DNA from: a virus
Taxonomy: Duplodnaviria; Heunggongvirae; Uroviricota; Caudoviricetes
IMG/VR virus record: IMGVR_UViG_2561511241_000003
DNA: 37,150 nt
Reading direction: 5' to 3' (one strand)
Numbering within the stretch: position 1 is the first letter of the stretch; each line of letters opens with the position of its first letter. This document shows, piece by piece, positions 9,195 to 11,091 of the stretch. A program made the position numbers and the translations under genes. Under the pieces are notes generated by a model that saw nothing but the letters and a program-made list of their open reading frames with translations, was not told the DNA's origin and made no database searches.

Positions 9195-9581
9195 ATGCTA
9201 TTAGATAGCTCTGTTTTCGAAGTTAAAAACGTTGGTTTGGGAGAAGCGGCAAAACGGAACGTGGGAACAGGGGAAAATCAGATACCAGATATGTCTGCAT
9301 TTCCATCTGGCAAAAACTGGTTTCAGTTACCAAGTGGTCATATTGTCCAAATGTTTTCGATGAATGTTTATGGGGCGGACACTAACGGAACTACAGGTAA
9401 TTTCCCTATTGCATTTCCTTCAGGCGCACTGGCTGTTAGTGCCTTATGGTTAGATGGCTCATTAACGGCTGCTCCGACCTTTAAACTTATGGGGTACACG
9501 ACAACAAGGACATCTGTAACCTTAAAAGTATCAACCGGAAATGGTTTGTATGGAACTATGATTATCGCAATAGGAAGATAA
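9195..9581 (+). CDS. alternative tail-fibre C-terminal variable domain (currently silent orientation)
   Basis: The ORF reads ...NVGLGE-AAKRNVGTG... through the left crossover site in the same phase as H reads GLGE at the right site, so inversion would give an in-frame H fusion with a different ~112-aa C-terminus. Confidence 0.65.
   Translation: MLLDSSVFEVKNVGLGEAAKRNVGTGENQIPDMSAFPSGKNWFQLPSGHIVQMFSMNVYGADTNGTTGNFPIAFPSGALAVSALWLDGSLTAAPTFKLMGYTTTRTSVTLKVSTGNGLYGTMIIAIGR
9221..9246. repeat. left crossover site of invertible segment (cix/gix-like)
   Basis: Contains TTGGTTTGGGAGAAG, the exact reverse complement of the core of the right site. It falls inside the GLGE-coding stretch of the silent fibre ORF. 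Confidence 0.6.
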
Positions 9582-9582
9582 T

Positions 9583-10026
9583 ATGAATCAATATATTTAT
9601 TCCCCTTCGGAAAATGCTTTTTATGCTGTTAATTTAAAAAACACTTATGAAGTAAATGGAACATGGCCTGCTGATGCATTAGATATTCCTGATGACATTT
9701 CTGTAAAATATATGGCGGAACCGCCACAAGGGAAAATCCGAGTTGCAGGGGAAAATGGTTTTCCCACATGGGCTGAAATACCTCCACCATCACATGAGGA
9801 ACTTATTGAACAGGCCGAATCAGAGAGGCAATTATTGATTAACCAGGCCAACGATTATATGAACAGTAAACAATGGCCTGGTAAAGCGGCTATTGGTCGT
9901 CTGAAAGGCGAGGAACTGGCGCAATATAATCTGTGGCTGGATTATCTGGACGCACTGGAACTGGTCGATACTTCCGGTGCGCCAGATATTAAATGGCCTA
10001 CGCCTCCGGCAGTTCAGGCCAGATGA
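9583..10026 (+). CDS. tail fibre assembly chaperone (partner of the alternative fibre tip)
   Basis: 147 aa with the conserved Tfa C-terminus ...LDYLDALELVDTSGAPDIKWPTPP. Convergent with the second tfa gene. Confidence 0.8.
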   Translation: MNQYIYSPSENAFYAVNLKNTYEVNGTWPADALDIPDDISVKYMAEPPQGKIRVAGENGFPTWAEIPPPSHEELIEQAESERQLLINQANDYMNSKQWPGKAAIGRLKGEELAQYNLWLDYLDALELVDTSGAPDIKWPTPPAVQAR

Positions 10027-10600
10027 CATCCGGCGCGGTGCTGGTATCTGTTGCCGTCACCGCGTCAGTGTAATCCAGCACGGCGTTAAGTCGGGTTGTT
10101 TCTGCCTGCGTCAGTTTCCGTCCGGCCTGCAATTTCAGTTGAATCAGACTGATGGAAGCCATAGCAGCATCAATCAGTGACTGGCGCTGTGCTTCTGCCG
10201 CTTCGACTACGGCGCTATGCTGTGCCTCAGTATCGGTCACCCATTTCTCACCATCCCATTTATCGTATGGAGATAAAGGGGCGATAGTGGTTGTATTTTC
10301 AGGGTAATCACCCGGAGCTGTGATTTCTTTTGATTCTCCTGTTTCTGTGCTATAGACGATTTCACCGCGATGGTCTGGCACATATTCCCATGAATTTAAA
10401 TTCACAGAACGACAGATTGCATAACCAACCTTATGTATGCCAGGTGCATCAAGACAGGAACATGCTGGAATACCGACCCCCACAGCAAGATATTCAGTTG
10501 ATGTGGAAATATATTCCCGTGTTTCACTATCATAGTTATAGACGGTAATATTCCCCGCCTTCGTGGCAATAAACTCGCTATTTAATACAGCATTATCCAT
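9998..10600 (-). CDS. G: tail fibre assembly chaperone (gpG-like)
   Basis: 200 aa with Tfa C-terminus ...LDYTDAVTATDTSTAPDVIWPELPEA. Immediately downstream of the current fibre tip. Confidence 0.8.
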   Translation of the reverse strand: MDNAVLNSEFIATKAGNITVYNYDSETREYISTSTEYLAVGVGIPACSCLDAPGIHKVGYAICRSVNLNSWEYVPDHRGEIVYSTETGESKEITAPGDYPENTTTIAPLSPYDKWDGEKWVTDTEAQHSAVVEAAEAQRQSLIDAAMASISLIQLKLQAGRKLTQAETTRLNAVLDYTDAVTATDTSTAPDVIWPELPEA

Positions 10601-11091
10601 TATGCAGCCCTCACGATATAGTTAAATGCAACATTTCGTGGGCGGGTTTCGTTACCGCCAGGGAGCTGAAAAGCGTTGATAATCCCACCGCTTGCCTGAC
10701 TTATTCCATCCGTGTACAACCCGCCACCGGCACTGTCGCTGAGTGCAAATGTTTTTGATGGTGAACTGTTTGAAGCTGGTCCCCAGTATTTTAATGCGAG
10801 CTTTCTGACTTCATCACTCTGAATACTCAATAAAGCACGCCCTGTATCAATGCTGCGCCCATCATCCCAGCCACGAATAAACTCACCGCGGAGATCAGGT
10901 AGTTTCCCTGATGGATATGCTGTAGCAAGACGGGGATATTTAACCTTATCAAAGGCAGCGCCATTGCATTTCAGCCAGCCTGTTGGCGGCGTAGCTGAAG
11001 GCCACGGGAACAGGGGACACCAACAGGTAATGCAGAGCCTTCTCCCAAACCAAGGTATGCGAGAAGACCAGCCACATCCTTTCCACTCAAA
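10600..11091 (-). other. tail-fibre C-terminal receptor-binding region, in a different frame from the H constant part
   Basis: My hand translation shows this frame open from 11091 to 10600, encoding ...PWPSATPPTGWLKCNGAAFDKVKYPRLATAYPSGKLPDLRGEFIRGWDDGRSIDTGRALL..., a typical fibre-tip motif set. It is offset by one nucleotide from the H frame. Confidence 0.6.

Follow-up and report, generated by a model that had tools for sequence, protein, structure and literature searches.

A probable Pin-type invertible tail-fibre segment in a P2-like prophage of Escherichia coli UMNK88 and its three-site relatives

The P segment of e14, a cryptic prophage of E. coli K-12, is 1,797 bp long, is bounded by the repeat TTGGTTTGGGAGAAGG and has been shown experimentally to invert via PinE and PinQ (PMC12529663). 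Prophages of EC958 that carry the same type of site switch at high frequency, as Forde et al. 2014 observed in PacBio reads, and the site of the Phi2 prophage reads ...TAAACG-TT-GGTTTGGGGGAA (PMC4134206). The G segment of phage Mu follows the same logic, a constant part, Sc, being joined to either the Sv/U or the S'v/U' cassette. The Min system of plasmid p15B, studied by Sandmeier, Iida and Arber, is reportedly a multi-site inversion system with six sites. For its site consensus, the EC958 study cites the Min work as the source (PMC4134206). Here we analyse a 37,150-nt stretch of Caudoviricetes DNA (IMG/VR record IMGVR_UViG_2561511241_000003; the whole stretch is called the window), in which a serine invertase gene adjoins two opposed tail-fibre tip and chaperone cassettes. 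It is very probable that this region is a Pin-type (e14 P-segment) member of the Hin/Gin/Cin/Pin tail-fibre inversion systems, residing in a P2-like prophage of the porcine strain UMNK88. The elements of the system are the following.

8567-9166, minus strand: serine DNA invertase of the Pin/Gin type, 199 amino acids (aa) (Pfam Resolvase, 2e-51, and HTH_7, 1.5e-12)
9082-9145, minus strand: candidate recombinational enhancer with putative Fis sites, in the 5' coding part of the invertase gene, proposed from homology
9220-9245, plus strand: left, invertase-proximal crossover site, 26 bp, AAGTTAAAAACG-TT-GGTTTGGGAGAA
9234-9581, plus strand: tip2, at present unexpressed, an exon of 115 aa from GLGE (Pfam Gp53-like_C, 8e-9)
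9583-10026, plus strand: tfa2, tail-fibre assembly chaperone of 147 aa, partner of tip2 (Pfam Caudo_TAP, 1e-32)
9998-10600, minus strand: tfa3, tail-fibre assembly chaperone of 200 aa, partner of tip3 (Pfam Caudo_TAP, 1e-32)
10600-11051, minus strand: tip3, now joined to gene H (Pfam Collar domain after frame repair)
11040-11065, plus strand: right crossover site, within gene H, 26 bp, TTCTCCCAAACC-AA-GGTATGCGAGAA
11052-12101, minus strand: constant part of H (Pfam Phage_tail_fib, 3e-62)

Like other Hin/Gin/Cin/Pin systems, the segment is bounded by two inverted 26-bp sites with 12-bp halves and the same asymmetric 2-bp core (TT/AA). The strongest inverted repeat found by a repeat search of positions 8500-12000 has arms at 9229-9246 and 11039-11056 (18 nt, 94% complementary), and the 14-mer TTGGTTTGGGAGAA is present in exactly two copies in the window, in inverted orientation. 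Read as its reverse complement, the right site is TTCTCGCATACC-TT-GGTTTGGGAGAA; both sites have the inner half GGTTTGGGAGAA and the TT core in common and lie in inverted orientation. The right site differs from the palindromic invertase consensus TTCTCNNAAACCWWGGTTTNNGAGAA by 1 mismatch, a match reached by 0 of 100 shuffles. The DNA that would invert is 9234-11051 (1,818 bp); counted with both of its sites, the segment extends over 1,846 bp, in agreement with the original prediction of inverted, shared-core sites bounding about 1.85 kb. That prediction placed the right site exactly and the left one off by a single position, at 9221-9246 instead of 9220-9245; the crossover-site similarity that it relied on is recovered on careful alignment, with inner half and TT core identical. 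A search of the entire 37-kb window found no crossover sites beyond the two. By this count the window is not a Min-like multi-site system, which has at least three sites; its closest relatives have three.

The combination of TT core and inner half GGTTTGGGAGAA is the same in the window, in both pix sites of e14 and in the e14 repeat TTGGTTTGGGAGAAGG, whereas the invertase-proximal outer half-site is AAGTTAAAAACG in the window and TTTTCATAAACG in e14. EC958 Phi2 is similar in having 26-bp sites of the form ...AAACG-TT-GGTTTGGGGGAA and a 2-3 kb segment with Collar-domain tips and minor fibre genes; it represents a different prophage with different cassettes. Mu is more distant, with a GA core in its gix sites, other half-sites, a 3-kb segment and unrelated tips.

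The cassettes are arranged as in e14, in the order tip, tfa, convergent overlapping tfa, tip, and in both cases the 3' ends of the two tfa genes overlap by 29 nt and transcription of the invertase gene leads outward from the segment. The identities between the window and e14 amount to 82% for the invertase and PinE, 90% for tfa3 and TfaE, 53% for tfa2 and TfaP, and 55% for the repaired tip3 and StfE. The TfaE/TfaP-type convergent chaperone pair, together with the pix-type sites (TT core and GGTTTGGGAGAA), assigns the locus to the e14 Pin/P-segment subtype. In contrast to e14, tip2, with its Gp53-like_C domain, is only 31% identical to StfP, and the window segment, slightly longer than that of e14, is located in an almost complete P2-like prophage and joined to a full H gene. 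The Pfam matches (Gp53-like_C, Caudo_TAP twice and, after repair, Collar) bear out the proposal of two fibre-tip/tfa cassettes in opposite orientations.

Junctions in both orientations read ...LLAYLGLGE... in frame with H. Translation of the two forms upholds the claim that the site encodes GLGE in phase with H whichever way the segment lies. In-silico inversion of 9234-11051 at the central dinucleotide joins H to tip2 in frame (...LLAYLGLGEAAKRNVG...) and yields an intact 465-aa fibre. The junction of the present orientation is likewise in frame (...LLAYLGLGEGSALPVGV...), and the frame is lost 14 codons after GLGE, the H open reading frame (ORF) as given running from 12101 to 10971 (376 aa). 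Alignment to the related prophage of ETEC4085, described below, locates two extra G (plus strand) in tip3, in the runs 11006-11008 and 11013-11016. Without them the frame continues as GVPVPWPSATPP..., and the resulting fibre has a Collar domain and 499 aa, the length of the annotated ETEC4085 fibre. In the sequence as given, only the flipped form yields an intact fibre. Apart from this loss of frame in tip3, the locus shares with the Mu G, P1 C and e14 P fibre segments the possession of alternative 3' exons, each with its own chaperone, that are fused in frame.

The invertase gene is intact, is transcribed away from the segment and lies 54 bp outside the left site, where the original prediction had placed a serine invertase; its Resolvase and HTH_7 domains support that identification. 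Its DNA is identical to that of the ETEC4085 recombinase gene. Translation probably starts at 9166 (MQIGYIRVS...), the start chosen in ETEC4085 by PGAP (the NCBI annotation pipeline), and a further in-frame ATG lies upstream at 9175. The C-terminus is 15 aa longer than that of e14 PinE. The protein is 75% identical to Mu Gin, whose gene also starts beside one site and points outward from the segment, and shares with it the catalytic Ser9, here within MQIGYIRVS, which is the nucleophile of Gin (PMC3575834). The best solved structures are those of Gin (4m6f and 3uj3, E ~1e-88, residues 1-181); gamma-delta resolvase matches at 1e-31 and the DNA-binding domain of Hin (1hcr) at 5e-11. Salmonella Hin has a similar DNA-binding domain, including the Fis-contacting Q-x-x-R-L of helix 1 and a basic helix B, but differs in that it switches a flagellin-gene promoter and does not exchange tail-fibre exons. 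According to McLean et al., residues K47, K/R48, K/R51, Q151, R154 and L155 of Hin are specific to Fis/enhancer-dependent invertases (PMC3798978). Their counterparts in the window invertase are K46, K47 and R50 (numbers one lower than in Hin) and, within helix 1 of the DNA-binding domain, EQIARL; the protein combines the serine recombinase architecture of about 190 aa with the residues specific to this subclass.

In gin, hin and cin, the 5' part of the gene itself holds the enhancer, which acts in cis and has two Fis sites. The corresponding candidate in the window (coding nt 15-95) has a nucleotide identity of 77% to gin and 85% to pinE. The window shares the 15-mer GTATCAACAAATGAC (G-N13-C) unchanged with both pinE and gin, and a second G-N13-C element follows 49 nt downstream of it in the window and in gin.

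We postulate that the small serine invertase (8567-9166) would bind both 26-bp sites, cut at the central TT/AA dinucleotide, rotate the ends and rejoin them, leaving 9234-11051 inverted. Such an event would exchange the 3' exon that follows the constant part of H, tip3 with tfa3 against tip2 with tfa2. Fis bound to the candidate enhancer near the start of the invertase gene probably assists, a dependence on Fis and enhancer being predicted, and inversion would be expected to change receptor specificity. This scheme builds on features that can be read off directly, namely the sites and their polarity, the in-frame junctions, the intact invertase, the contents of the cassettes and natural isomers in which half-site markers are exchanged at the core.

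These isomers are provided by related genomes. A flipped-junction query of 600 nt, composed of the predicted H constant part and tip2, showed that seven genomes contain the H-tip2 junction as a continuous sequence inside a fibre gene annotated as such. PE144 and S10 have the entire two-cassette segment turned round with respect to H and encode an intact fibre of 465 aa. The prophage of ETEC4085, located between dmsA and serS, is 99.97-99.99% identical to the window and has three sites in the order A-tip1-B-tip2-tfa2-tfa3-tip3-C, with site C in H; OkiPb01713, which is 97.3% identical to ETEC4085, also has three sites and represents the same isomer. Site A of ETEC4085 adjoins the invertase and has the inner half GGTTTGGGGGAA, while site B reads TGCATAAAAACG-TT-GGTTTGGGAGAA and lies directly after the stop codon of tip1. 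This third cassette comprises 487 bp and has no chaperone gene of its own (3696-4233 in L001, the ETEC4085 locus; 5539-6051 in L007, the ETEC1749 locus). ETEC1749 and rl0044 carry these modules at 99.8-99.97% identity in the order A-tip2-tfa2-tfa3-tip3-B-tip1-C-H, and two successive inversions, A x C followed by A x B, convert the ETEC4085 order exactly into that of ETEC1749. Junction searches found each three-site isomer in 2 of 5,426 complete genomes. A G/A marker in the inner half moves with its cassette and the outer halves stay put; since the marker travels with the cassette, the exchange point lies within the interval from the outer half to inner position 9, which includes the core. With flipped and permuted relatives at hand, the assignment to a known class of mechanism, an invertible fibre segment of the Hin/Gin/Cin/Pin family, stands and can be narrowed to the e14 Pin subtype.

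The sister prophages ETEC4085, OkiPb01713, ETEC1749 and rl0044 are Min-like in having three sites and tip modules that are shuffled into isomers. Unlike Min, the window has two sites, and the third cassette of its relatives, tip1, lacks a chaperone of its own and is followed directly after its stop by site B. In ETEC1749, the fusion of tip1 to H leaves tfa3 as the nearest following chaperone gene, with the stranded tip3 exon in between. As tip1 and tip3 are 61% identical, tip1 may share the tfa3 chaperone.

The window equals ETEC4085 minus positions 3748-4211 of L001, and its left site is a hybrid of the outer half of ETEC4085 site A and the inner half of site B (A, not G, at 9242). Because OkiPb01713, at 97.3% identity, has three sites and the window is only ~0.03% away from ETEC4085, the three-site state is ancestral in this clade and the two-site state derived. 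Judged from the sequence, the window is exactly what a loss of the 487-bp cassette between sites A and B, or an assembly path through a mixed population, would leave. The two-site form may have arisen by a deletion that the invertase made between sites in direct orientation (A x B if it started from the isomer of ETEC4085, B x C if from that of ETEC1749), by slippage between 23-bp direct repeats, or as a mixed-culture assembly path that combines A|tip2 of one isomer with tip3|C of another. Gin reportedly makes deletions besides inversions (Plasterk et al. 1983). The window may record a natural invertase deletion between direct sites that turned a three-site shuffling system into a two-site switch.

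The copy in the window is reduced and damaged: the 487-bp cassette, comprising tip1 and site B, is gone, the tip on the expressed side is off frame, and an insertion sequence (IS) interrupts gene S.

14698-16010, minus strand: IS3-family element of the IS1203/IS629 type with a GTA target duplication (Pfam HTH_Tnp_1, HTH_21 and rve)

This element is 99.8% identical to annotated IS1203, lies inside a gpS-like tail-completion gene and is absent from ETEC4085. Upstream of it, Pfam finds only the N-terminal part of Phage_tail_S. In P2, gpS is an essential tail-completion gene. Since IS1203 splits this gene, the prophage is probably defective and forms no infectious particles by itself. The original prediction described the mechanism as well preserved here and foresaw host-range phase variation. 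A clean two-state host-range switch did not hold up for the sequence as given, in view of a +2 frameshift in the expressed tip, the reduction from a three-site system and the IS1203 insertion in S; with the H-joined cassette losing its frame so soon after GLGE, 'well preserved' is not fully true of the sequence as given. Virion-level phase variation in UMNK88 is doubtful, and part of the damage may be a sequencing or assembly artefact.

Several observations weigh against a working Pin-type switch. The outer half of the left site is degenerate: the full consensus TTCTCNNAAACCWWGGTTTNNGAGAA could not be matched there at 3 or fewer mismatches, and the outer bases of this half (AAGTT...) are not of the TTCTC type that the consensus has. 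Its inner half and core are canonical, leaving one good half-site; a degenerate outer half is also found at the invertase-proximal sites of e14 and EC958 Phi2. The conservation of the candidate enhancer is confounded with that of the protein-coding sequence, and the spacing of the candidate Fis sites is 49 bp as compared with 48 bp in the literature. A simple consensus scan of the 54-bp spacer gave no promoter for the invertase, the number of matches being equal to that in shuffles. The present orientation, as sequenced, encodes a truncated fibre, and with gpS split by the IS, switching may have no effect at the level of the virion. Owing to this disruption, host-range phase variation would be moot here unless the IS is complemented or the segment has another role. 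Inversion in UMNK88 itself is predicted from the arrangement of the sequence.

Just one contig on record carries the truncated H protein, CP002729.1 (GCA_000212715.2), where the region 1008495-1021625 shows the gene neighbourhood of the window; this is the genome of porcine enterotoxigenic E. coli UMNK88 from the early 2010s. Scans of the GTDB representative genomes and of IMG/VR for exact copies of the frameshifted 35-mer gave no hits. We give somewhat less than even chances to the view that the defects are assembly artefacts and that the real UMNK88 locus is intact like that of ETEC4085, with over-called G residues and a chimeric path that drops tip1 by joining A|tip2 from an ETEC1749-type isomer to tip3|C from an ETEC4085-type isomer. 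Leaving aside the 487-bp cassette and the IS, the window differs from ETEC4085 by just 7 substitutions (~36 kb) and 3 single-base insertions, and its IS copy differs from the best of ~31,000 IS1203 copies by 3 single-base insertions and 0 substitutions. All six length differences are insertions that extend a homopolymer, with 0 deletions. Two pairs of them lie 7-8 nt apart near repeat boundaries, 11006/11013 at ~30-45 nt from the crossover site and 15986/15994 at 17-25 nt from the end of the IS. Among 1,347 E. coli records that match 10970-11065, identity always stays below 99%, those at the top (97.9%) lacking exactly the two bases, and the IS insertions at 15630, 15986 and 15994 are each unique among the ~31,000 copies. 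Both window junctions are present in real isomers, as the chimeric path would require. UMNK88 was presumably sequenced by 454, a platform prone to homopolymer errors. The tip3 frameshift is rated more likely an artefact than real because the insertions bear the signature of homopolymer over-calling; the three insertions in the IS are probably errors too. Natural indels, however, also favour homopolymers, a finished genome is normally checked across such a region, and the hybrid left site is equally expected from a true deletion. Unlikely, although by no means negligible, is the converse, that the deletion, frameshift and IS are all real, the prophage is cryptic and inversion may still occur but no longer alters the host range of any virion, toggling at most between a truncated and a complete fibre gene. 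The clean 3-bp target duplication in gpS cannot be an assembly error, the Phage_tail_S match upstream of the IS is limited to the N-terminal part, the frameshift is in the sequence as given, and e14 offers the precedent of a cryptic prophage whose P segment still inverts (PMC12529663). On the other hand, the rest of the 35-kb prophage retains its ORFs intact at the near-identity to ETEC4085 given above, the invertase, both chaperones and tip2 are intact, and the indel pattern points to sequence error.

Two further explanations concern the switch as such. That the rearrangements result from general (RecA) recombination between similar tail-fibre sequences, and not from site-specific inversion, is scarcely credible: tip1 and tip3 do share 238 nt at 83% identity in inverted orientation, but the repeat at the window junctions is just 18 nt, five independent arrangements have all their junctions at one and the same TT between conserved half-sites, and an intact Pin-type invertase adjoins the segment. 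The other explanation concerns the cassette on the invertase side. In every system examined (the window, loci L001-L004 and L007, e14 as L008 and Mu as L009), the invertase-proximal site is accompanied by an in-frame ATG at a distance of exactly 25 nt on its outer side. This ATG adds a 12-aa leader to the 'silent' tip (9195-9233 in the window), so that tip2 is also readable as a 128-aa ORF at 9195-9581 (plus strand); in e14 this ATG is the start of stfE, and it is found in O157 and other P2-like prophages as well. The e14 protein StfE2 has been reported to mask receptors against other phages (PMC12529663). By analogy, the segment might have been taken over by the host, the promoter-distal tip being made as a free protein with its chaperone and masking receptors against other phages, a reading we hold to be quite improbable. 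The distance and frame of the ATG are conserved across the window lineage, e14, O157, other P2-like prophages and Mu, PGAP annotates these ORFs in relatives, and the e14 experiments lend it precedent (PMC12529663). Against it, a Shine-Dalgarno sequence (AGGA or GGAG) can be recognised in the e14 and O157 versions but not for the window ATG, the promoter scan gave no match, a stretch of twelve codons has about an even chance of being free of stops at random, and the conserved CAT on the other strand may belong to the 5' control region of the invertase. It is likewise improbable, again reasoning from e14, that in a virion-less prophage the invertase-side cassette is not silent and its free 128-aa tip and chaperone act for the host as an invertible factor that masks receptors or counters phages.

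Programmed frameshifting or slipped-strand phase variation at tip3 was also considered and appears unlikely, as the runs comprise just 3-4 G, two insertions are required and no other genome has either of them. The extra T at 15630 lies in a slippery A/T run and fuses orfA and orfB of the IS into a 404-aa ORF, and two extra T at 15986 and 15994 lie in its right terminal repeat. If real, the insertions would make this a constitutive-transposase variant. A sixth insertion, an extra G in a G run at 17086, lies in the lysis-gene region, where the ETEC4085 copy is annotated as incomplete.

For the Pin-type inversion segment, the mechanism is textbook knowledge; what is added here is that the expressed tip is off frame, that the segment descends from a three-site system of which natural isomers exist, and that an IS disrupts the prophage. 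Our understanding of serine invertases is unchanged by these findings, the use of which lies in annotation, with a mild natural-history value. The fibre gene is best annotated as a constant part with alternative exons. A probable homopolymer error accounts for the 376-aa H product and for the small ORFs that follow it, and automatic names such as 'phage tail protein' and 'gp53-like' conceal the switch. Furthermore, the comparison of ETEC4085 with ETEC1749 provides a natural three-site Pin-type example, with two isomers, a site-to-site loss product and a marker that places the exchange at or next to the core.

Beside the switch, the repeat search located a perfect hairpin next to the invertase gene, which is likely a bidirectional terminator.

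8547-8578, no strand assigned: perfect 13-bp hairpin between the convergent gpU and invertase genes

The adjacent block at 2967-8538, comprising sheath, tube, gpE, tape measure and gpU genes, is inverted relative to the canonical P2 order, convergent with the invertase and divergent from gpD. The same order is found in ETEC4085, RM9088, OkiPb01713 and phage 500465-2. No pix-like sites or inverted repeats were found at the junctions of this block. An inversion of the block by the invertase was rejected on the grounds that such sites are missing from its junctions and that the order is present in a phage record and several prophages; for the latter reason, we regard it as the gene order of the lineage, outside the switch. 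The window also contains a gpD-like ORF of 410 aa (1709-2941, minus strand), in which the Phage_GPD profile match is limited to residues 135-390; for ETEC4085, PGAP annotates just a 263-aa version. The N-terminal 134 aa fall outside the profile match. An ORF of 212 aa (381-1019, minus strand) has no Pfam or PADLOC match. Adjacent to it, at the end of the prophage next to serS, is a YafO-family toxin gene (1-381, minus strand). Between its replication and portal genes, the prophage carries as cargo a gene pair for anti-phage defence, IetA (AAA ATPase) with IetS (S8 peptidase) (25193-28563, minus strand).

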